DNA from: Desulfocapsa sulfexigens DSM 10523
Lineage (GTDB): Bacteria > Desulfobacterota > Desulfobulbia > Desulfobulbales > Desulfocapsaceae
Direction: 5' to 3'
Length of the DNA stretch: 32,000 nucleotides
Assembly (NCBI RefSeq): GCF_000341395.1
Contig: NC_020304.1
Coordinates: 2,880,001-2,912,000 of the forward strand
In this document: one piece after another, positions 2 to 27,648 of the stretch
How the letters are laid out: each line of letters begins with the position of its first letter
Numbering within the stretch: the first letter of the stretch is position 1
Notes under the pieces: model-generated
What the model was told of the DNA's origin: nothing
The model's input: only the letters and a program-made list of their open reading frames with translations
Databases searched by the model: none
Program-made: the position numbers and the translations under genes

Positions 2-1645
2 AAAGACACAGGTGAAGAGCCTGTTGAAGAAGGTTTTGTACCAGATGAAGATGGCTTTGTTGCTGCATTAAGCGGTATTACTGAAGAAGATACCGAAGAA
101 GATACGAAAGAAGAAGCAACAGTAAGTGATGATACTGAAAATGTTTTAGTTTCTGCTGAAGAAGAGATTCCAGCAGCACTTAGTGACTTTGCTGAAGATG
201 ACTTCCAGCCAGTCCTTGAAGAGCCTGACTTCGCAGTAGAAGAAGAACAGACTGAAGAAGACGATTCTGAACCTGTCTTTACTGCAGTCGAGGAACCGTC
301 TCTTCCTGAAGGAGTGTCAGAAGAGAATGTGGAAGAGCAGCTTTCATTTTTTGACGAAGAAGAATCTGGCAACTCCGAACCTGATGAGCCATCCGTTGTT
401 GAAGACATGCTTCAAGACGAAAATCCTGAAGACCAACTTTCGTTTCTTGATGAAGAAATTCCTGCTCCAGAGTCAACAGAGTCCGCAGATGATATAGATA
501 CGTTTTTTAACGATTACGATGATGACGTTGAGGAGGCATTATCCTACACTGATACAGATACGTCACCGACTCCTGCTCTCAGTTCTGAGCTTGAAGATGT
601 GGACGGAGAAGAGAGTAGAGAGATTGGGGCTTCTTTCTTCGAAGATGCTGATGGACCTGAGAATACCCTTGATGAAGAAAGTCTCTCGTTTTTCGATGAA
701 GAGAAGGAGTCTCTATTTGAAGAAGAACCTGGTGAAGCAATCGTTCTGGAAGAAGGTGATGAAGGTGATGAAATCCAGTTTACCGTTCCTGGAGAAATTG
801 CTGCTGATGATGATTTACAAGATACTGTACTTAAAGATTCATCATTTGATGATATTATTGAATTTAATGTACCAGGAGAAGAAGATTCTTCGGAGGTACT
901 AAATGATAGTATTGAGGATTCTGAGAGCTCTGAAGTTGTTTTTGAAGTGGTCGACGATGATGTGGAAGTCGATCCGCTTCCTGGTGAAGAGTATGCCGAT
1001 GAGTATGAAGATTTGGCAAATTCTGATCAGAAAGAAGATGTTGTGTTCCTTGAAGCCCAGGATGTTGGGTTCTCAGTTGAAGACTTTCAGGATATTAATC
1101 TTTTTATAGGACTTTTAAGGGATGATATTACAGAAGATGGTATTCAAAATGTCTTAACAGAACTTAATAGACTTAGAAATAACAGTGCTTCCACTCCCAC
1201 CATCAAAATATTCCTGCAGTTACTCTCAACGGTCTGTCAAAGTCTTGAGAAAATAACTTCTGCGGATTCCATTGCGGAAAGGCTTGAGTTGATAGAAGAA
1301 ATTTATTCCGGCCTTGAATCATGTGTTACTCCTGAAATCACAATAGAAGCGGTTCAGACGCGGTTACTCGGTTGTACCACTCGGGTATTACTTATGCAGA
1401 ACAATGAGGTGACGCAAACGGAAGCCCTTGTGGTTGAGGATGAAGAGGAAGTGTCCGCTGAAGTTTTAAGCAGTGTAAGTGATTCAATGGTTGATGACTC
1501 TGTCGATGATGAGGAAATATTCCCCGATGAATCTACTGAAAGAGATGATCAGCTGAGAGAGTATGTCCATGAGGAGTTAGCTGACATTAAAAAACTTTTT
1601 ATCGATGAAATTGCAGCACTTAGGAAAGAATTTATTGATAAGTAA
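2..1645 (+). CDS. Hyper-acidic protein, 5' end outside the window (D/E-rich low-complexity region followed by a ~170-aa helical C-terminal domain); no family recognised
   Basis: Frame 2 is open from base 2 (KDTGEEPVEEGFVPDEDG...), so the tracked start at 314 (a GTG) is internal. Stop TAA 1643-1645. Three in-frame copies of LSF(F/L)DEE. An intrinsic terminator follows. Confidence 0.7.
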   Translation, partial: KDTGEEPVEEGFVPDEDGFVAALSGITEEDTEEDTKEEATVSDDTENVLVSAEEEIPAALSDFAEDDFQPVLEEPDFAVEEEQTEEDDSEPVFTAVEEPSLPEGVSEENVEEQLSFFDEEESGNSEPDEPSVVEDMLQDENPEDQLSFLDEEIPAPESTESADDIDTFFNDYDDDVEEALSYTDTDTSPTPALSSELEDVDGEESREIGASFFEDADGPENTLDEESLSFFDEEKESLFEEEPGEAIVLEEGDEGDEIQFTVPGEIAADDDLQDTVLKDSSFDDIIEFNVPGEEDSSEVLNDSIEDSESSEVVFEVVDDDVEVDPLPGEEYADEYEDLANSDQKEDVVFLEAQDVGFSVEDFQDINLFIGLLRDDITEDGIQNVLTELNRLRNNSASTPTIKIFLQLLSTVCQSLEKITSADSIAERLELIEEIYSGLESCVTPEITIEAVQTRLLGCTTRVLLMQNNEVTQTEALVVEDEEEVSAEVLSSVSDSMVDDSVDDEEIFPDESTERDDQLREYVHEELADIKKLFIDEIAALRKEFIDK

Positions 1646-11576: not shown

Positions 11577-12419
11577 CTATCGGTTTAATAGATAGAAAAA
11601 AATACCACCTGCAGCCAGCCAGATATTGGTAATATTGGAAATAGTGATGTTGAGTATAGCGGCGAGTGGTTTTTTACGGCTGAGCAGGGCCAGACATGAT
11701 TTAAATTCGGGCCATGATGTGAGGGAGGCAAGAACCAGGAATCCTATTACTCCTTTTGGCGCTTTAGAATGTTCAGCCGCAAATGTAACCACAGGGTCAA
11801 GAAAATATCCAGAACTAAGCAGGAGTAAGATTGCAGGTATCAGCCAGCGTCTGGCACCCTCATGATACATTTCGTCACTCTCTTCTTCGCCTTCATTCGG
11901 GCGTAGAAAAAAAAGCGGCAGGGTCAGTAACAGCGCCGTAATCAACCAGTATTTGTAATAGGATGTTGGTATGCAGTAGAAACCGATGGCAAGAGTTGCT
12001 GTGCTCAGGATTGTGACAGTGCTGTAGAGCGGTTTGGTTTTCACTGTCTGCCAGGTCATTTTACAAATCACTGCGGCAGTAATCAGAAGAATAGGGTTCA
12101 TGAAATTTGAACCAAGGGGTGTAGATGCGGCAAAAAGGACATCACCGGCAGCAAGACCGACAATAAGACAAAGTGCTTCCGGGCCATTGGTTATGAATCC
12201 TGTGACGGTACCAATTCCTTTAATATGCTTAATGGACTCAATAATAATTTCCACAGACAAGCCGATAAGCATCATCTCAATTATGATTCCGGATGCTCCA
12301 AGAAAAGAGAGCTGGACATTGCCCTGAAAAATCAGACTGCTCCCGCAAAAAAATGCCAGAACCAGAACCCACACCACTAGATCTAAGCGTGTTACTGAAC
12401 TGAGAATAAGCTGTCTCAC
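11577..12419 (-). CDS. Short CaCA-like (Na+/Ca2+ exchanger superfamily) membrane protein
   Basis: 280-aa polytopic protein with two alpha-repeat-like segments: ITNGPE...LGSNFMNPILL and LTSWPE...ISNITNIWL. GTG start overlaps the upstream stop codon (GTGA, 12416-12419). Confidence 0.6.
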   Translation of the reverse strand: MRQLILSSVTRLDLVVWVLVLAFFCGSSLIFQGNVQLSFLGASGIIIEMMLIGLSVEIIIESIKHIKGIGTVTGFITNGPEALCLIVGLAAGDVLFAASTPLGSNFMNPILLITAAVICKMTWQTVKTKPLYSTVTILSTATLAIGFYCIPTSYYKYWLITALLLTLPLFFLRPNEGEEESDEMYHEGARRWLIPAILLLLSSGYFLDPVVTFAAEHSKAPKGVIGFLVLASLTSWPEFKSCLALLSRKKPLAAILNITISNITNIWLAAGGIFFYLLNR

Positions 12420-12667
12420 GGTTTCCGTACCTTTGTCAGAAATGCTTCGATTTTATCTCGATTGAGGAGGATACCGCTGATTTGTCCTTCGCCGTATTTC
12501 AGGGTCGGAATAAACATCACGCCATCTTTAAGAGCTCGCAGAGGGCTGGTTAGTATTTCGACTTCTTCCAGTTCTATGTCGTTCATGTTTGCCAAGAGTT
12601 CATCCAGAACTTTTTTTGCCATATGGCAACGAGGTCAGAGACTTGAGTGGTAAAAAGTGATGGTCAT
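12416..12667 (-). CDS. Thioredoxin/glutaredoxin-fold selenoprotein candidate (in-frame TGA at 12635-12637; active site U-P-R-C)
   Basis: Reading from ATG 12667 gives MTITFYHSSL-[TGA]-PRCHMAKKVLDELL...GVMFIPTLKYGEGQISG... The TGA sits at the first Cys position of a CxxC, right after beta-strand 1. The FIPT cis-Pro loop is present. The tracked ORF (start 12622) lacks beta-strand 1 and the redox centre. Confidence 0.6.
12597..12611 (-). other. Candidate SECIS-like hairpin downstream of the UGA
   Basis: mRNA AGUUC-UGGAU-GAACU: 5-bp stem, extendable by A-U pairs, with a G-containing apical loop at +32 to +36 from the U of UGA. A second small hairpin, UUGCC-AUAU-GGCAA, lies at 12616-12629. Neither was folded computationally. 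Confidence 0.3.
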
Positions 12668-12801
12668 AATTTTCAGTTTATATGAGTTTGTGATAGTTGC
12701 TTTATTGAAATACAAAGGATACTATCAAAAGGAAAGAATGTCACAGAAGATACACTGAAACCCTAAAGCTGTTCAACAAGAGTTTTTTTGTTCCGGGACC
12801 T

Positions 12802-19131: not shown

Positions 19132-19629
19132 TTACTGTTTTGGCGAACGGACGGGTAAGGCTCGTCTGTTGCCCCCCGTTCCCCTTTTTAATCTTTTTGT
19201 GACTCCATAGTTAAATCCAAATGCTATGGCCTTGTTGTCCGAGGTTCGTCTGTCGGTCCAGACGTAGGGGGCGCTGATGTTGATTGTTTGTGTCACAACA
19301 TCAATAGACCCTGAATAGTCCTGCCCCTGCACTTTCTTTCCATTACCATAGAGTGATTTGAGCTCGCTGGATGCAGGCATTCTCCAGTCATTGTGCCCGC
19401 CAACTGCAAAGTTTTTGCAATACTCTACGGCCCCGGACCAGTTAATGCTTGAACCGTTGTCGGTTGCAGCCCATATAAGGCCGGTTTTTTCATCCCGTAC
19501 TGTTCCATCGGATAGGGTCTTGAATCGGACATCTGCTGCTCTTGCATTAAAAATAAGAAGGCAGAGCAGGAGATAAAAAAAGGCGCCGGTGATGGATGCT
19601 TTTCTGAGTAGACAGTTGGTACTATTCAT
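19132..19629 (-). CDS. Secreted DUF1566 (Lcl C-terminal, lectin-like) domain protein
   Basis: Signal peptide ending NARA-AD. DUF1566 signature TGLIWA...GHNDWRMPASSELKSLY. Start set at ATG 19629, overlapping the upstream stop codon by 8 nt. The tracked 19671 start lies inside the upstream gene. Confidence 0.75.
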   Translation of the reverse strand: MNSTNCLLRKASITGAFFYLLLCLLIFNARAADVRFKTLSDGTVRDEKTGLIWAATDNGSSINWSGAVEYCKNFAVGGHNDWRMPASSELKSLYGNGKKVQGQDYSGSIDVVTQTINISAPYVWTDRRTSDNKAIAFGFNYGVTKRLKRGTGGNRRALPVRSPKQ

Positions 19630-21223
19630 TGTTCTCTTTTTCCTGTGGTGGAGTAGTGTCAATCTTTCCAAGCGATAGTGGCGGACTCCAGGTTAGCCAC
19701 TTGTCATTCGGATCCCTGTGAAGAACAAAATGTTTGCCGTTGGCAACACGATTTCCCATGTCATCCTTGTCAGGTGTGGAAAAGGAAATGCCACCGCCGA
19801 TAATTGCTGCAACAGATTCTGTGCTGATCCGCATTTCAGTCATAAGTCCTCCTTTAATGCGAAACCCGGTACTGTTCCAGAATTTGGTGTTTTCCCGGAC
19901 AAGATTTACGTAGGGCTCGTGAATGTTGACGTAAATGAGAACATTTTGGCCAGTGGGGGAGAGTTCGTAGCCCGTTGTGTGGCCAACCTGTACCTGACGA
20001 TAATAGACAGGCTTGTTATAGCCAAGAGATCCAAGTCGATCCGTTTCAAGTACCAGATTCAGGCCCGTATTGTCTGTAATATTTACGGGGCGACTGTTAT
20101 GTACTTCAAAGGTACGCGCACTCTTGCCTGTACCTGGAAGAATATTGACGTATGCCCCTTTTATAAGGGTATCAAGATTGGATATTCCTTCGGCGTTAAA
20201 GCGTGCATTTACCGTCCAGAAATAAGCATCTGCACCGAGCAGTGCCTCCATTGATTTGTCGATGTAGGCTGTTGCGTTGACAGTTCGCAAATCACTCTTC
20301 ATTTCAATGTCAGTGATATGACCGATTTTTATACCATTAAAACGGATTTCAGCATCAGGCTGCAGACCATGATCTGCAGAAAAGGTGAGGTGTATTTTAA
20401 TGTCATCTGCCCGAAGGGCATCGTCCATACTGTCGTAGAGTAGAAAAATATTTTTGCTGTCAACTTTTTCACCACCAGTCGGAGTGAAAAAGCTGATGCC
20501 GCCACGTAAAATGCTTTTTATGGAATCCACCTCCATAGAGATTTTGGGGAGATTTGCCTGGAAACGGATACCGCTACTGATAAAAAATCTAGAAAATGAA
20601 GTTACGTGGCCAACATATTGAGGATGGATGAGAAGTTTTGTTTCAATGGTGCCATCGGGTAACAGTCTGTTGGATACAATTTCTCCAACAGCAATTTTTT
20701 TAAAAGAAACAGGAGAGCCAGCTTCCAATGAAACAGAATCTTTATTATGTAGGGTTAAATGAAGTCCAGGAACCCGCATGGAAATAGGAGGAGGGTCTGG
20801 CAGGGCTGTAAATGAATCAGTCTGCTCCGTAGAATTTCCCGGTTGTACTTCAAAGTAACTGCCTTTAATCAGGGTATCCAGGCCTGTGATGCGGTTCATT
20901 GAGATTTCAGGACGAACAACCCAGAAGAGGGTATCTTTGGTTAATTTTTCTCTTGCCTGTTTAACCATCTCTATTTCTGCATTGATGTGTTTCAAATCGG
21001 GACTCACGGTAAAACCTTTAAGCGTTCCCACCGGTAGCCCTTTGAAAAATACCTGAGTTTTTCCCTCCGTGAGCCCATTGGCGTCTTTTATGGCGACGGT
21101 TATCATAATGCCCGATTCCTGATAATCCTTATAGATCAGATAGGCACCGATAAGAATTGCAACCAGTGGAAGTATCCAGATGGGTGAAATTCCGATTTTT
21201 GGTTTTATAATTGGGGTTTCCAT
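19622..21223 (-). CDS. MCE-domain intermembrane transport protein (PqiB/LetB family) with four tandem MCE-like repeats
   Basis: N-terminal TM segment PIWILPLVAILIGAYLIY. Four repeats each carry a (K/R)x(I/L/V)xVG core. Repeat ends alternate: GLDTLIKGSYFEV / NLDTLIKGAYVNI versus ILRGGISFFTP / IIGGGISFSTP. Confidence 0.88.
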   Translation of the reverse strand: METPIIKPKIGISPIWILPLVAILIGAYLIYKDYQESGIMITVAIKDANGLTEGKTQVFFKGLPVGTLKGFTVSPDLKHINAEIEMVKQAREKLTKDTLFWVVRPEISMNRITGLDTLIKGSYFEVQPGNSTEQTDSFTALPDPPPISMRVPGLHLTLHNKDSVSLEAGSPVSFKKIAVGEIVSNRLLPDGTIETKLLIHPQYVGHVTSFSRFFISSGIRFQANLPKISMEVDSIKSILRGGISFFTPTGGEKVDSKNIFLLYDSMDDALRADDIKIHLTFSADHGLQPDAEIRFNGIKIGHITDIEMKSDLRTVNATAYIDKSMEALLGADAYFWTVNARFNAEGISNLDTLIKGAYVNILPGTGKSARTFEVHNSRPVNITDNTGLNLVLETDRLGSLGYNKPVYYRQVQVGHTTGYELSPTGQNVLIYVNIHEPYVNLVRENTKFWNSTGFRIKGGLMTEMRISTESVAAIIGGGISFSTPDKDDMGNRVANGKHFVLHRDPNDKWLTWSPPLSLGKIDTTPPQEKENNE

Positions 21224-21269
21224 AATAGTGTTTTCTGTTAAACGAATTGGGTGATGATGTTAATAACTT

Positions 21270-21869
21270 CTAATTGGCATCCCAGAGGAGACGCGAGTCA
21301 AATGTGAGAGCTGCACTCATGGTACAAACCACAACGGCGGAAAAATATGTTACAGCGGGAGCGGCAATGGTTGAGGTGAACCCTCCAAAGCTTACCAGCG
21401 TTGACATAAGGGCGATGACAAAAATGTCGAGCATGGACCAGCGGCCGATAAATTCTATGAAACGAAACATGGCAATCTTGTGTCGCAATCCTCTTTTCCA
21501 CTTAAAGTGTATTGAGAGCAGGATAATAATCATGCCAATGATCTTAAAGGTAGGCACCAGCACGGAGGCAGTAAAAATGATAAGTCCAATAAAATATTCA
21601 TCCTCGTGAAAAAAGTAGACGATACCGTCCATTATGGTGGAGGATTCCATGGTACCCAGGAAATTAACTCGCATGATAGGTAGCAGGTTTGCCGGGATGA
21701 AGAGGAGTATGGAGGTGATGATCAGGGCCCATACCCGCGTTAAGGAGTGTGGTTTGCGGAAATGGATTTCAGCATTACATCTGGGACAGGTGAGAACTTC
21801 GTTTTTTACAGTTTCTCTGGTCTTGAGTAACTTTCCGCAGTCGTGACAGGACATCAGTCCGGCTTTCAT
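21270..21869 (-). CDS. PqiA/LetA-family membrane protein, second half-size gene
   Basis: Zinc-ribbon CHDCG...CPRCN followed by four TM segments. Start set at ATG 21869, 10 nt after the upstream stop. ATGs at 21890 and 21893 are alternatives. Confidence 0.8.
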   Translation of the reverse strand: MKAGLMSCHDCGKLLKTRETVKNEVLTCPRCNAEIHFRKPHSLTRVWALIITSILLFIPANLLPIMRVNFLGTMESSTIMDGIVYFFHEDEYFIGLIIFTASVLVPTFKIIGMIIILLSIHFKWKRGLRHKIAMFRFIEFIGRWSMLDIFVIALMSTLVSFGGFTSTIAAPAVTYFSAVVVCTMSAALTFDSRLLWDAN

Positions 21870-21879
21870 GGCAGTGGCT

Positions 21880-22524
21880 TTAAATGGCATCATCCATATC
21901 CCGGCTGGAATCGGATCTGATTTGTTCGATATTTTTCCAGAATGTGTCGGGATCCAAAGCTGAGGTAGATGCACGGGTCATAAAAACTAGAAAAACAAAA
22001 CAGAAGAAGCCAATGTTGTAGTCAATGCTGGCAACGCTGATGATCTTGATAATACTGACAAGGAGTGCAATGAGATAGACATCGGGCATACCCCATTCAT
22101 CCATGTGAAGAGCTGTACGGAAAAGAAAGGGGAGTGAACGGCTATAGCGCTGTGTCTTTAATTGCAGGGAAACGGAAAAAAGCAGGCTTAGATTCAGGAG
22201 CGGAAAAAAAACGGAAGTGATAAAAACGAGAACGGCTACAAAATAGTATTTTTGATGGTAAAAGCTCAGGAAAGCATCAAAAATGGAGCCATTTTGAGAC
22301 ATTCCCATTGAGTGTAAGGTAAGAAGAGGCAGGAAGATAGCTGGTATATAGGCAAGAAGGCCACTGATACTGATAGCAAGTACTTTGGTGATTGAATTTA
22401 CTTTTTTATGAAGGAGTACAGTGTTGCAACGGGGACAAAAGAGTTTCTTACCGGGGTGGGCTTCAATCTTTTTAAGAAGCAGATCACATCCGGGACAGGC
22501 TATAATAGTAGTGGTTGCAGTCAT
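21880..22524 (-). CDS. PqiA/LetA-family membrane protein, first half-size gene
   Basis: Zinc-ribbon CPGCD...CPRCN followed by TM segments. 214 aa. Confidence 0.85.
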   Translation of the reverse strand: MTATTTIIACPGCDLLLKKIEAHPGKKLFCPRCNTVLLHKKVNSITKVLAISISGLLAYIPAIFLPLLTLHSMGMSQNGSIFDAFLSFYHQKYYFVAVLVFITSVFFPLLNLSLLFSVSLQLKTQRYSRSLPFLFRTALHMDEWGMPDVYLIALLVSIIKIISVASIDYNIGFFCFVFLVFMTRASTSALDPDTFWKNIEQIRSDSSRDMDDAI

Positions 22525-22724
22525 AAGCTTTACACGGGATCCATATAAATAAGTTCCTGAAAGAATAGCATATTCAAAGCTAAATCTGAAAGAAATATTT
22601 AATCAAATGTCTAATTTTACCAAATAGGGTATATGTTTGATTGACTAGGAAAAAAAGATCTATCGAGCCTGGGACGAGATGGATATCATGTATATTAGTA
22701 AGTGGATTGGTAAAAGAGATCGGT

Positions 22725-23387
22725 ATGATTATACAACAGACAAGCTGTAAACAGTGTGGAATTTGCTGCACTAAAGGAGGGCCGGCACTCCACGGGGCGG
22801 ATATTGATCTCTTGCGGCAGGGATCTATTCCACGAAAGAATCTTATCACCATCCGCAAGGGCGAGTTTGCCTATAATCCTGTCGCAGAGATGGTGCAGGC
22901 TACTCAGTCTGAAATTGTGAAATTGAAAGGTAGTGGGGGAGATTGGACCTGCTGCTATTATGATCCTGAATCACAAGGTTGTAGCATCTACGATAATAGA
23001 CCTCTGGCCTGTGTAATTCTGCAGTGCTGGAATCCTGATGCAACTCTTGCCCTTGTTGAGAAAGATCTCCTTAGCCGCCTCGATATAGTATCAGGTGACA
23101 AGTTTCTAGTGAAATTGATAACAGAGTATGAACTTGCCTGTCCCTTACCCGATTGTGAAAAACTTTCCATTGACCTGCAAAATAACTCTGAATCAATGAT
23201 TGCAAATCTTGAAGATCTTGTGAATCGTGATCTTCAGTTCCGGAATAATGTTGTTGCCGGGTCGGATACAGTTTTAGACGAGGAGATGTTCCTCTTTGGC
23301 AGGCCATTGTTTCAAATAGTTCAGTCCTTTGGTTTACTGGTTTCTCAATATGAAAACCGTCTACGCTTGAAAATGAAGAAATTATAG
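22725..23387 (+). CDS. YkgJ-type cysteine-cluster (CxxCxxCC) protein
   Basis: CKQCGICCTKGGP near the N-terminus, with further Cys (WTCCYY, CSIY, CVILQC). Start set at ATG 22725; the tracked start at 22641 is a TTG. Confidence 0.7.
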   Translation: MIIQQTSCKQCGICCTKGGPALHGADIDLLRQGSIPRKNLITIRKGEFAYNPVAEMVQATQSEIVKLKGSGGDWTCCYYDPESQGCSIYDNRPLACVILQCWNPDATLALVEKDLLSRLDIVSGDKFLVKLITEYELACPLPDCEKLSIDLQNNSESMIANLEDLVNRDLQFRNNVVAGSDTVLDEEMFLFGRPLFQIVQSFGLLVSQYENRLRLKMKKL

Positions 23388-23683: not shown

Positions 23684-24430
23684 TTACCAGTTTTTACGAT
23701 CTATTACGGCACCCTGGGTGGAGAGAGTGACTTGTTCAACAGGAACGCTTTTTCCTGCACGCTCTATGGCCTGGCTGATGATACCGTTCATAGATGAACA
23801 GCAGGGAACTTCCATAATAAGAATGGTGAGGCTGTTGAGATTACAGGTGGCAATGATTTCACTGAATTTCTGAACATAGCTCTCTGCATCGTCAAATTTA
23901 GGACAACCCATCATTACAACTTTTCCGGTGAGGTAATCCAGCTGAAAATTTGGAGCGGAAACGGCGCAGCAATCGGCGGCAACCAATAAATCTGCACCCT
24001 GAAGGAATGGAGCTGTGGGAGGTATGAGGCGAATCTGTACCGGCCAGTGGGTAAGTGATGAGGCACCACCTCCAGCAGCCATTGCTATGGGTTTGTTGGC
24101 TGTCTGGCATGGCGTCTGGGGGGTAAAGGTCTGCAACCGCGCGGAAGGACATCCTGAAGTCTTTGGTTTATCTACAGCAGCTCTCTGTTTAGCCAGATGT
24201 TCTTCAACCGCCTCCTCATCAAAGTCTTCAGCTTCACGCTCGATGATTTTGAGTGCGCCGGTGGGGCATGATCCAAGACAGGCACCAAGACCGTCACAAA
24301 GCTTATCCGAGACCATCTTTGCTTTTCCGTCAATAATAACAAGAGAACCCTCCGCACAGTCAGGAACACAGAGACCGCAACCATTGCAAAGTTCTTCATC
24401 GATTTCAATAATTTTTCGCATAATTTTCAT
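23684..24430 (-). CDS. 4Fe-4S dicluster ferredoxin-domain protein with a Cys-rich C-terminal domain
   Basis: CNGCGLCVPDC and CDGLGACLGSCP cluster motifs. The C-terminal domain carries ADCCAV, GCPKFDD and MEVPCCSS. Confidence 0.8.
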   Translation of the reverse strand: MKIMRKIIEIDEELCNGCGLCVPDCAEGSLVIIDGKAKMVSDKLCDGLGACLGSCPTGALKIIEREAEDFDEEAVEEHLAKQRAAVDKPKTSGCPSARLQTFTPQTPCQTANKPIAMAAGGGASSLTHWPVQIRLIPPTAPFLQGADLLVAADCCAVSAPNFQLDYLTGKVVMMGCPKFDDAESYVQKFSEIIATCNLNSLTILIMEVPCCSSMNGIISQAIERAGKSVPVEQVTLSTQGAVIDRKNW

Positions 24431-26476: not shown

Positions 26477-26542
26477 ACTGCCTGTGTTTTGAAGAAAACG
26501 ACATTATTTAACACTTTAAACAGAATACTCCTCAGGTTAACT

Positions 26543-26974
26543 ATGCAAAAATATATTGTTTTGTTCGCATTGCTCTTTTTCGTAACCTCCTGTTCTAACG
26601 ATGAACAGCCAGAAAACGTTTCACATCCCGTCACAACTGCAACACAAAGTACCACGTCTGCCAGCGCTCCTTCAGCAACTCGCCAGCTGGCATCCCATAA
26701 ACTGGTTTTCTTTTTGGATCCCAATGGAGGACCATGTCGTTTACAGGTGTCCATCCTCAATGACATGGCCACGGAACTCCGTGGAAAGGTGGATATTCAA
26801 TATGTACAGACGGTGGTTCCTGCTGATAGGGCTCTTTTTTCACAGTATGGTATTCGTGCACTTCCTACCCTGCTCCTTGCCGACGCCAGTGGCAAAGAAA
26901 TTAAGCGAATGACTCCAGGTGTAAAACAGGCTGACGATATCCGTCTTCTGCTTCAATCCATTCCTCAATTATAA
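26543..26974 (+). CDS. Thioredoxin-fold lipoprotein with a degenerate active site (G-G-P-C instead of C-x-x-C)
   Basis: Lipobox signal MQKYIVLFALLFFVTSC. Thioredoxin-like VFFLDPNGGPCRLQ and cis-Pro segment RALPTLLL. Start set at ATG 26543; the tracked start at 26489 is a TTG right at the predicted transcription start. Confidence 0.75.
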   Translation: MQKYIVLFALLFFVTSCSNDEQPENVSHPVTTATQSTTSASAPSATRQLASHKLVFFLDPNGGPCRLQVSILNDMATELRGKVDIQYVQTVVPADRALFSQYGIRALPTLLLADASGKEIKRMTPGVKQADDIRLLLQSIPQL

Positions 26975-26982
26975 TAACGATT

Positions 26983-27648
26983 ATGCCTCTAGACCTCAGT
27001 GTAACAACCCTTTTAATGGTGACTGTTGCAGGTGTTGCCTCCATAGCTTCCCCCTGTGTATTGCCCATGGTTCCCATCATTGTAACGGGAACCAGTGACG
27101 ACCATAAATATAGGCCCTTACTTATTGTTACCGGACTTAGTATCAGCTTTATTATCATGGGAGTTCTCACCTCCCTTTTTGCTGGGGCTGTGGCAGGAGT
27201 GATGCCAGTCGTCGAAAAAGTTGTTGGTGTTATAATTATTCTTTTTGGGTTCTCAATGCTTTTTGGCATAAATGTTTTTAAAAAATTCACTTTCTTTTAC
27301 AAAGCGCAGCAGTTTCAGAGCAAGGGAACATTTTCAGGACTGATTTTAGGAATGACACTTGGTGTGATTTGGATTCCCTGTGTAGGGCCCATGCTTTCAG
27401 GAGTCCTGGCACTGGTGGCAACGCAGGGGAAACTTGCTTCAGGCCTGATACTGCTTGCTTTTTATTCCCTGGGCTTTGCTATTCCCATGTTACTGGCAGG
27501 CTACGCTTCACAGACTATTCGACACAGGATTCGTGCGGTTAACAGTCACCCAGTGGCTGTTCGTCTGGTGAGTGGTTTGCTGCTTATCATTTTTGGTTAT
27601 TTTATTCTTACAGCTGGTATGCTGGCGATTGGGAGTTCTTTTAGCTGA
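26983..27648 (+). CDS. ccdA: CcdA/DsbD-family thiol-disulfide electron transporter
   Basis: Six TM segments with the two conserved Cys motifs SPCVLPMVP and IPCVGPML. Confidence 0.88.
   Translation: MPLDLSVTTLLMVTVAGVASIASPCVLPMVPIIVTGTSDDHKYRPLLIVTGLSISFIIMGVLTSLFAGAVAGVMPVVEKVVGVIIILFGFSMLFGINVFKKFTFFYKAQQFQSKGTFSGLILGMTLGVIWIPCVGPMLSGVLALVATQGKLASGLILLAFYSLGFAIPMLLAGYASQTIRHRIRAVNSHPVAVRLVSGLLLIIFGYFILTAGMLAIGSSFS

Follow-up and report, generated by a model that had tools for sequence, protein, structure and literature searches.

In the 32,000-nucleotide stretch of the Desulfocapsa sulfexigens DSM 10523 genome analysed here (positions 2,880,001 to 2,912,000 of NC_020304.1, hereafter the window), a gene read as coding for a 68-residue "hypothetical protein" most likely encodes an 83-residue thioredoxin-fold protein with an active-site selenocysteine (Sec) specified by an in-frame UGA, a reading to which we assign a probability of roughly 0.88. 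The proposed coding sequence occupies positions 12416-12667 of the reverse strand, on which all features described below are located, and runs from an ATG at 12667-12665 to a TGA stop at 12418-12416. As the original prediction had stated, the list of open reading frames contains a 68-residue frame at 12416-12622, and reading the same frame further upstream yields M(12667)TITFYHSSL-TGA(12637-12635)-PRCH-M(12622)AKKVLDELL. The UGA, codon 11, would thus open a U-P-R-C redox motif (codons 11-14, 12626-12637) with invariant proline and arginine residues, and it is preceded by an N-terminal extension, M-T-I-T-F-Y-H-S-S-L (12638-12667), which corresponds to strand beta1 and is absent from the annotation. 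Upstream of ATG 12667 the frame reads ...KLKI, with further stops beyond. The start chosen by the gene callers is the internal ATG of Met16 (12620-12622), and the suspicion that standard annotation truncates the gene was borne out by the databases, in which all Sec-form entries retrieved start at this methionine, are about 56-74 residues long and in no case cover the extension. Similarly, 36 of 36 homologues from the first pass were truncated calls of 56-70 residues, and in about 34 of the best 150 family representatives (at 50% identity) the truncation falls at profile position 16. A crude search for further selenoprotein genes within the window, that is, for frames extendable through a TGA in a Cys/Ser/Thr-x-x-U-type context, otherwise returned out-of-frame or antisense noise. 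In a promoter scan matches were no more numerous than in shuffled sequences; its lone match is a weak promoter-like GTGACA-17-TATCCT at 12744-12716.

The extension and the UGA are conserved as parts of a protein. Both the ATG at 12667 and the TGA at codon 11 are retained in the DNA of 32 of 32 non-redundant orthologues from Desulfocapsa and its relatives, mostly metagenome assemblies, and TGA also occupies this site in the more distant L057 and L058, which represent independent Sec lineages of the family. Changes within the ten codons upstream of the TGA are mainly synonymous, and conservation ends upstream of ATG 12667, where stops occur; the homologues do not, as could have been the case, start only at the internal methionine. 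Residues Y6 and S8 are invariant and L10 is found in 31 of the 32 orthologues, with codons that vary synonymously only (TAT/TAC, TCA/TCC/TCT/TCG and CTC/CTT/CTG, respectively). Residue 14 is a cysteine in 29 and a serine in three of the orthologues, and these natural U-P-R-S variants are devoid of any cysteine. Met16 is encoded by ATG in all 32 Sec forms of the Desulfocapsa clade and in L057, and is replaced by GTG (Val) in L058. A further candidate from the metagenome scan, L040, was dropped as an unrelated KaiB-like match.

The original prediction also called for homologues which align a cysteine to the Sec position and cover the MTITFYHSS segment, and such proteins were readily found: P0037, P0038, P0088 and others all read L-C-P-R-C at this site, and CPRC is invariant in the ten full-length Cys forms. 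Their DNA carries TGC or TGT in place of the UGA codon; among them, P0038, with TGC, is a positional orthologue that occupies the corresponding place in its genome. Position 16 is occupied by M, L or Q in the Cys forms.

Profile and structure comparisons place the full-length product within the thioredoxin fold, and the strand beta1 and active site said to be missing from the 68-residue frame are restored by the extension: with the U read as C, the best Pfam match, PF13192 (Thioredoxin_3), reaches 29.7 bits for the extended protein compared to 17.1 bits for the 68-residue frame, at a gathering threshold of 24.8. Once the extension is added, the Glrx-like and Glutaredoxin profiles align from their first position; PF00462 is barely above its cut-off (23.8 vs 22.9 bits) and PF00085 stays below (20.6 vs 23.5 bits). 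Among solved structures the best matches are 1FO5 (E=4.3e-10), in which the first cysteine of CPHC aligns to the U, and 1NHO (E=2.3e-6). The assignment of F-I-P-T (residues 52-55, 12503-12514) to the cis-proline loop ahead of strand beta3 likewise held, as P54 is invariant, aligns to VPT of 1FO5 and is followed by beta3 in the model. This AlphaFold model is that of the Cys homologue P0037, 65% identical to the window protein; it has a pLDDT of 92.9 and the topology b1-a1-b2-a2-b3-b4-a3, with beta1 spanning residues 2-7, C11 next and alpha1 spanning residues 12-25, so that the motif caps the N-terminus of alpha1. P54 of the window protein is represented in the model by P56, ahead of beta3, and Foldseek searches with the model returned thioredoxins at a TM-score of about 0.75. 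Together with the alignment to 1FO5, the homologue model shows the product of the window gene to have a minimal thioredoxin fold.

None of the more specific families claims the protein. All 32 members match the MJ0307 family (TIGR00411), all far below its cut-off, and the window protein, at 33.9 vs 92.75 bits, is therefore not a member. The models for mycoredoxin (TIGR02200, 34.3 bits), NrdH (17.3), Grx3 (21) and YruB (18.1) have cut-offs of about 86-90 bits, none of which was reached, and the same applies to the TrxA and Grx models of NCBIfam. SaoT (NF040730) and HUIPC (NF047660) gave no match at E<=0.01 among the 32 members; Uxx-star (NF041212/NF047338) matched eight of the 32 with a best E of 4.8e-4 and 13.4 bits for the window protein against a cut-off of 66, and PDO_seleno_TRX (TIGR02187) matched one of the 32, below cut-off. 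The family may possibly already be catalogued in BSepDB or elsewhere under a generic name.

Downstream of the UGA, a stem-loop resembling a bacterial SECIS element was predicted and is present at 12597-12611: a 5-bp stem, AGUUC/GAACU, with the apical loop UGGAU, located 28 nt after the UGA and part of the minimum-free-energy fold. It agrees with the rules for bacterial SECIS elements (bSECIS) given in PMC13188914 (5-bp stem, 28-nt spacing, G residues at loop positions 2 and 3). Over 48 nt the minimum free energies range from -8.4 to -15.3 kcal/mol, with values of -7.5 kcal/mol or lower in 32 of 32 sequences; the hairpin by itself is weak (-2.8 to -5.9 kcal/mol), and the fold of the single sequence does not exceed chance expectation (z = -1.09), as 32 of 200 shuffled sequences fold equally well. 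It is the comparative data, not the single-sequence fold, by which the hairpin stands out from chance. The stem is conserved in the orthologues, being paired in 160 of 160 cells with two pairs changing on both sides, and its covariation score was reached by none of 500 shuffles, the underlying events being few (four cells in two pairs, with one event from a Cys-form orthologue). Every Sec form has a UGGAY loop. Within codons 14-23 the synonymous entropy amounts to 0.31, compared to 0.73 elsewhere (Mann-Whitney p = 4.9e-5, for a region picked post hoc), and around the hairpin alanine is encoded by GCT in 27 of 27 and leucine by CTG in 32 of 32 orthologues. In L058 a separate hairpin, with an 8-bp stem and a GGUC loop, lies 18 nt downstream of the UGA. 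A second, smaller hairpin closer to the UGA, UUGCC-AUAU-GGCAA at 12616-12629, also occurs in the minimum-free-energy fold; this doubtful element did not hold up as a functional structure and was rejected, as its outer two pairs are broken in 7-12 of 22 sequences and constancy is confined to three pairs that the Cys and Met-Ala codons dictate. The codon usage at this site (Cys TGC in 29 of 29, His CAT in 23 of 24) hints at a degree of constraint on the nucleotides. In distant Cys forms the SECIS-type hairpin is lost, with one to three of the five pairs left, while it is kept in the two closest ones. We read the latter as the likely outcome of a recent Sec-to-Cys change; at the same time, they show that a UGA is not needed for the stem to be retained.

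Based on these data, the following mode of decoding and action is proposed. By analogy with the standard bacterial mechanism, the hairpin at 12611-12597 would bind SelB-GTP-Sec-tRNA(Sec) and deliver it to a ribosome with the UGA in its A site, while UGA elsewhere in the genome signals translation termination; SelB dependence and actual selenium insertion are what we infer from this analogy. No selA, selB, selD or tRNA-Sec was detected within the 32-kb window by Rfam at gathering thresholds, ARAGORN and Pfam searches of the ORFs, the former two yielding no match of any kind. At the level of the lineage, the literature supports the use of Sec: a Desulfocapsaceae genome has been described to harbor 56 selenoprotein genes (PMC13326102), and a close relative possesses all genes for Sec biosynthesis (PMC7117923). 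Judged from fold and motif, the selenoprotein would be an 83-residue cytoplasmic protein of minimal thioredoxin/glutaredoxin fold, with the Sec right behind strand beta1, capping helix alpha1 at its N-terminus. As Sec would replace the attacking cysteine of a CxxC motif, a thiol/selenol oxidoreductase is to be expected, which may cycle via a selenenylsulfide formed between Sec and Cys14; the three U-P-R-S orthologues would have to work through the selenol alone.

Other explanations for the interrupted frame have to be weighed against Sec insertion. The true product could be the 68-residue frame from ATG 12622, with the TGA ending a 10-codon regulatory or coupled leader peptide. Every gene caller took that start, its ATG is invariant in the 32 Sec forms of the clade and also present in L057, and TGA is an ordinary stop in this genome. 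However, such a product would be devoid of strand beta1 and the entire active site, the supposed leader and the N-terminal segments of 1FO5 and the Cys homologues align residue by residue, and the Cys homologues read through this site with Cys at the position of the TGA codon. In addition, ATG 12622 is not preceded by a Shine-Dalgarno sequence and L058 has GTG (Val) at position 16, and we regard this explanation as highly improbable. A related scenario would have two outputs, the full-length protein when selenium is available and, under scarcity, termination at the UGA followed by re-initiation at Met16 12 nt downstream, yielding an inactive 68-residue fragment or sustaining translation of the coupled transporter gene described below. 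The strict conservation of the codon-16 ATG (32 of 32 clade Sec forms), set against M, L or Q in the Cys forms, would fit such a role, and so would the transporter, whose translation depends on ribosomes reaching 12419 because its start overlaps the stop of the selenoprotein gene (GTGA). The ATG may, however, be kept for the AUG-GC/UGC-C pairing in the proximal hairpin or for reasons of the protein, and both the GTG in L058 and the missing ribosome-binding site at Met16 speak against it as well. This scenario is pure inference, and we consider it very unlikely.

Alternatively, the UGA might be read through without Sec-tRNA(Sec), by near-cognate insertion of Trp or Cys or by a local variant of the code, which would be in line with the modest hairpin and with a window in which sel genes were not seen. 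Yet TGA serves as an ordinary stop for ten of the 27 genes in the window, including the selenoprotein gene itself, and the code is therefore not reassigned. Moreover, the site is that of the catalytic cysteine of a redox motif, a typical place of Sec/Cys exchange, the conserved G-loop hairpin at 28 nt and the separate GGUC hairpin of L058 at 18 nt fit recoding by SelB, and the lineage is rich in selenoproteins; we hold such read-through to be very unlikely. The TGA might finally mark a pseudogene, or an assembly or sequencing error in a Cys-type gene, given that TGA differs from TGC by one base and that the sequences stem mostly from metagenome assemblies. This explanation is effectively refuted by the recurrence of the TGA across independent assemblies, in 32 non-redundant sequences whose flanks are under purifying selection. 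Decoding of the UGA as Sec is thus the reading that we prefer.

The selenoprotein gene is probably co-transcribed and translationally coupled with an adjoining gene for a divergent membrane protein of 280 residues with a probable CaCA fold (11577-12419), whose GTG start at 12419-12417 forms the overlap mentioned above. Pfam PF01699 (Na_Ca_ex) matches its C-terminal half only, at 31.4 vs 24.9 bits. Searches of the solved structures in the PDB with the single sequence and a profile gave no sequence match, so that a fold comparison was needed; the best 20 Foldseek matches were all CaCA exchangers, at TM-scores of only 0.5-0.6. The protein has four invariant cysteines, C25, C84, C119 and C242, together with invariant E81 and E238 in the motifs TNGPE(81) and TSWPE(238), and two of these cysteines directly follow the two ion-site motifs. 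All Sec loci, and seven of nine Cys-form contexts examined, have the membrane protein gene behind the thioredoxin-fold gene; the exceptions are P0038 and P0122, which lack the transporter gene. Adjacency within the Sec clade says little because the entire neighborhood is syntenic there; the pairing recurs, though, in differing genomic contexts. On the basis of this gene order it might tentatively be suggested that the selenoprotein and the exchanger are functionally linked, a possibility to which we would give somewhat less than even odds. The selenoprotein may then serve the transporter by keeping its cysteines reduced, as a means of gating, or by taking charge of a cargo that reacts with thiols. 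Taken further, it might be speculated that an undescribed family of small U/C-P-R-C thioredoxin-fold proteins is dedicated to serving a Cys-rich CaCA exchanger from the cytoplasm, in redox gating or in the hand-over of a soft-metal or metalloid cargo, which we think doubtful. To our knowledge, no member of the CaCA superfamily has been described with either redox gating or a cargo-receiving role. If true, repeated Sec/Cys switching and the Cys-free U-P-R-S variants would mark a mono-selenol mechanism.

The window gene is a genuine and fairly ordinary example of an annotation-truncated selenoprotein, and one more U-x-x-C thioredoxin-fold selenoprotein in a selenoprotein-rich lineage is expected rather than surprising. 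Dozens of Sec-form clusters at 90% identity are stored as "hypothetical protein" without their active site, and automated pipelines will go on truncating them because the curated NCBIfam models all score below their cut-offs for this family; a family model with a Sec flag would be the remedy. Less ordinary are the recurring association with a coupled gene for a divergent, probably CaCA-fold exchanger bearing invariant cysteines by both ion-site motifs, the cysteine-free U-P-R-S variants and the Cys-form orthologues that retain the hairpin, the last of which provide a small, clean system for studying the gain or loss of SECIS elements.

UxxC thioredoxin and glutaredoxin selenoproteins of anaerobes are known from Thermodesulfobacteriota, with a bacterial SECIS element directly after the UGA (PMC13188914). 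The window protein shares with these Sec thioredoxins (PF00085) and glutaredoxins (PF00462) the fold class, the position of the U-x-x-C motif and, presumably, the selenenylsulfide chemistry, but lacks the additional N-terminal strand and helix of classical thioredoxins. The Thioredoxin_3 domain (PF13192) is also common to Sec.1 and Sec.2 of the same study (PMC13188914), which are set apart by their listed motifs, CxU and UxC in contrast to U-x-x-C here. MJ0307 (TIGR00411; 1FO5) and 1NHO are of the same size and have the same beta1-CxxC-alpha1 layout and cis-proline loop; they are, however, archaeal, carry Cys instead of Sec and are not known to have a CaCA partner. A small single-domain thioredoxin-like protein encoded beside a membrane transporter is likewise found in the MTH895/ArsE proteins (TIGR00412), which we take to be paired with ArsP-type permeases. 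In this case the transporter family is a different one, and the match of the window protein is weak (14.7 bits, cut-off 62), with six of the 32 members matching at E<=0.01. SaoT (CD2368 family, NF040730; 10.1101/2022.07.06.499078) is similar in its size of about 85 residues, its MJ0307-like thioredoxin fold, a U-x-x-C motif (UPTC) after strand beta1, coexisting Sec and Cys forms, database truncation at the UGA (to about 61 residues) and an operon shared with genes for membrane transport. In contrast, the motif of the present family is U-P-R-C, with no CxUC or CPCC variants, its neighbor is a probable CaCA-fold exchanger instead of the nine-gene sao ABC/organometallic locus, and it resides in Desulfocapsaceae, whereas SaoT belongs to clostridia or spirochaetes.

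The frame of the 68-aa ORF annotated at 12622-12416 on the minus strand runs on in the 5' direction to an ATG at 12667, beyond which stop codons occur. The codons of this extension, ATG(12667) ACC ATC ACT TTT TAC CAC TCA AGT CTC TGA(12637-12635) CCT CGT TGC CAT ATG(12622), are read across the TGA as MTITFYHSSL-U-PRCH-MAKK..., with U denoting selenocysteine (Sec). Frame reading and RNA folding placed the TGA, a FIPT motif (12514-12503), a proximal hairpin (12629-12616) and a distal SECIS-type hairpin (12611-12597), all on the minus strand, where they had originally been predicted. The observation of a hidden UGA-recoded thioredoxin-fold gene was confirmed, and the conserved UGA, Cys homologues, fold and hairpin support its interpretation as a real selenoprotein gene which, judged by comparative sequence analysis, is systematically mis-annotated. 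UGA serves as the stop of 10 of the 27 genes in the window, the selenoprotein gene's own included, so the recoding must be local. In the 32-kb window neither tRNAs nor Rfam matches were found, and none of the annotated ORFs is a sel gene. Among relatives, 'Ca. Desulfobulbus rimicarensis', described as close to Desulfocapsa sulfexigens, possesses all Sec biosynthesis genes (PMC7117923), and one Desulfocapsaceae bacterium with 56 selenoprotein genes is among the ten most selenoprotein-rich bacteria (PMC13326102).

The annotated product had been proposed to miss strand beta1 and the active site, and the extension restores both. Read with C for U, the 83-aa protein reaches 29.7 bits against Pfam Thioredoxin_3 versus 17.1 for the 68-aa call (cut-off 24.8), and with the extension the matches to the Glrx-like and Glutaredoxin profiles begin at profile position one. 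The family profile found the MJ0307 thioredoxin structure 1FO5 (E=4.3e-10) with 'kitfyhstlCPrchmakk' aligned over 'KIELFTSPMCPHCPAAKR' and 'iPt' over 'VPT', which assigns U to the first, attacking Cys position. The AlphaFold model of P0037, a database Cys homologue with 65% identity, is confident (pLDDT 92.9) and shows the minimal topology b1(2-7)-a1(12-25)-b2-a2-b3-b4-a3 with residue 11 as helix cap, and its Foldseek matches are thioredoxins at a TM of about 0.75. The 83-aa protein has neither a signal peptide nor a membrane segment, its N-terminus being directly strand beta1, and is therefore likely to reside in the cytoplasm. Another thioredoxin domain (PF00085, 24.8 bits) occurs in the region 26489-27648 (plus strand) in a 161-aa ORF. 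This ORF carries a lipoprotein-type signal and has N-G-G-P-C, and hence the second Cys only, at the expected CxxC. Directly 3' lies a DsbD_TM/CcdA-type membrane gene (26983-27648, plus strand), and the two resemble a periplasmic pair of single-Cys Trx-like and CcdA-type proteins.

An initial protein search gave 36 homologues, every one of 56-70 aa; by this length all 36 were called from the internal Met, as expected if standard annotation truncates the gene. At the DNA level, 21 loci from genomes, each of them a Desulfocapsa or Desulfobulbaceae MAG, and 19 from metagenomes yielded 32 non-redundant sequences, all of which keep ATG as codon 1 and TGA as codon 11. Residues Y6 and S8 never vary and L10 is present in 31 of 32, while the codons differ synonymously (TAT/TAC; TCA/TCC/TCT/TCG; CTC/CTT/CTG); directly 5' of the ATG, amino-acid and nucleotide conservation are lost and stop codons are present. 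Conservation from the ATG onward only, together with synonymous codon change, therefore argues for a translated extension, and a true start at the internal Met is at odds with ten upstream codons conserved in 32 sequences. A leader peptide ending at the TGA would not be expected to leave this pattern. In three orthologues (L001/L023, L008/L029 and L011) the selenoprotein carries U-P-R-S, with Ser (AGC/AGT) replacing the resolving Cys (12626-12628 in the window); L008 and L011 have no cysteine in the whole protein, leaving Sec as the only redox residue, so selenol-only chemistry must suffice for function. A motif noticed by eye, CAATAAAGCAAC (12696-12707, minus strand), also precedes the gene in orthologues. 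In many of them its end is about 3-5 nt from the ATG (just upstream in L008, L010, L012, L013, L014, L016, L020 and L021), and in the window it is placed about 29 nt further upstream; it may have a promoter or regulatory role.

A profile built from the 32 full-length sequences (U read as C) was used to seek full-length homologues, and those found (82-125 aa) carry L-C-P-R-C-[HY] at the position matching U. The database protein P0038 occupies the orthologous position (ACS-CBS-HDAC, Trx, ... leuA) with TGC in place of the window TGA, and a Cys form is present in the cultured Desulfopila aestuarii. Cys homologues spanning MTITFYHSS with Cys aligned to U, as predicted, thus exist. When 1.84 billion representatives were searched exhaustively with the profile of the Cys forms, the family proved to be small (243 representatives at E<=1e-3), and about 34 of the top 150 have 62-74 aa and start exactly at position 16 of the profile. 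Of the most divergent short ones, two were checked, and each carries an in-frame TGA at the corresponding site (MKEVIFYHSLL*PRCHM and MKTVTFYHSEN*GRCRV), so Sec forms occur in several family lineages. Short database members are not all Sec forms, since at locus L056 (3795-3974, on a 2.4-Mb contig) a Cys-form gene is wrongly annotated, with 59 aa beginning at an internal Met, its real start (MTTKIILYKSSLCPRCYL...) lying upstream.

The distal hairpin, located 28 nt past the UGA, consists of a 5-bp stem with a UGGAY loop (AGUUC-UGGAU-GAACU in the window). The window sequence alone is unremarkable (54-nt MFE -10.1 kcal/mol, z=-1.09; the 15-nt hairpin by itself -2.8 to -5.9 kcal/mol), and the 48-nt MFE ranges from -8.4 to -15.3 kcal/mol across all 32 sequences. 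Stem, loop, spacing and folding energy agree with published rules for bacterial SECIS elements (PMC13188914). The stem, which the original prediction required to be conserved, is paired in 160/160 cells (31 Sec sequences and the Cys orthologue P0038), with compensatory changes from C-G to U-A in three sequences, a U-G intermediate, G-C to A-U in one, and A-U/G-U variants. Its covariation score was reached by 0/500 shuffles, and slid registers all pair in <=43% of cells. Codon use near the stem is restricted (Cys TGC 29/29, His CAT 23/24, Ala+4 GCT 27/27, Leu+5 CTG 32/32), while 5-6 different codons are in use at each of the two Leu positions that follow; in codons 14-23, a region picked after data inspection, normalised synonymous entropy amounts to 0.31, versus 0.73 elsewhere (p=4.9e-5). 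In five distant Cys forms used as control, 1-3 of 5 positions pair, with no conserved loop and other codons and residues. The closest two Cys forms keep the stem, L048 (48-320) identically as AGCUC-UGGAU-GAGCU and L042 (5001-5258) as AACUC-UGUAU-GAGUU, which points to a recent Sec-to-Cys change; these hairpins look like fossil SECIS elements remaining after a TGA-to-TGC change. In the divergent member L058 another, stronger hairpin of 8 bp with a GGUC loop lies at a distance of 18 nt from the UGA, which would fit separate evolution of a SECIS in each lineage. The smaller proximal hairpin is not supported as an element by the orthologue comparison.

At GTGA (12419-12416) the selenoprotein stop overlaps the GTG with which the gene for a 280-aa membrane protein begins. 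This protein is named 'cation:H+ antiporter' or 'sodium:proton exchanger' in databases and matches Pfam Na_Ca_ex in its C-terminal half only. The best 20 structural matches of its model (pLDDT 80.6) are all CaCA exchangers (VCX1, CAX, NCX_Mj, YfkE; TM 0.5-0.6), and E81 and E238, which lie in repeat-like motifs (TNGPEALC and TSWPEFKSC, respectively), are invariant down to 60% identity, as are C25, C84, C119 and C242. Adjacency within the Sec clade proves little, because the whole neighbourhood is syntenic there; the pair also stands behind differing upstream genes in the Cys-form loci L048-L052, L055 and L056, and the partner gene is absent at those of P0038 and P0122. In view of the CaCA fold, invariant cysteines and recurring pairing, the selenoprotein is proposed to work for the exchanger, as an oxidoreductase that would control its cysteines or handle thiol-reactive cargo. 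Cys-form Trx(-CaCA) genes (L045, L050, L055, L056) repeatedly adjoin CreA, CxxCxxCC protein, AF_0155-type 4Fe-4S, NIR_SIR and hybrid-cluster (Prismane) genes; in the window, a CxxCxxCC gene (22641-23387) and a Fer4 gene (23684-24430) lie about 10 kb from the selenoprotein gene. A PqiA/PqiB-like cluster (19132-22524, minus strand) comprises, by Pfam, PqiA as two overlapping ORFs, each with a full domain (21880-22524 and 21270-21974), then a protein with three MlaD domains (19622-21223) and an ORF with an Lcl_C domain (19132-19671). For a 443-aa ORF (314-1645, plus strand), Pfam gave no match at a threshold as loose as E<=0.1.

The significance of the gene lies mainly in its annotation and in its puzzling association with a CaCA-fold exchanger rich in cysteines. 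None of the NCBIfam models reached its cut-off against the 32 members, the best being the MJ0307 family and mycoredoxin (about 34 bits versus about 90), and the curated models of Trx-like selenoproteins (SaoT, HUIPC, Uxx-star and PDO_seleno_TRX) were absent or far under threshold. Selenoproteins with a thioredoxin fold and a U-x-x-C motif form a well-known class in Thermodesulfobacteriota (PMC13188914), to which the sequence evidence supports assigning this gene. SaoT, the nearest described analogue in kind, is approximately 85 aa, MJ0307-like, UPTC-bearing, database-truncated and encoded in a transporter operon, but represents a separate family with another gene neighbourhood.
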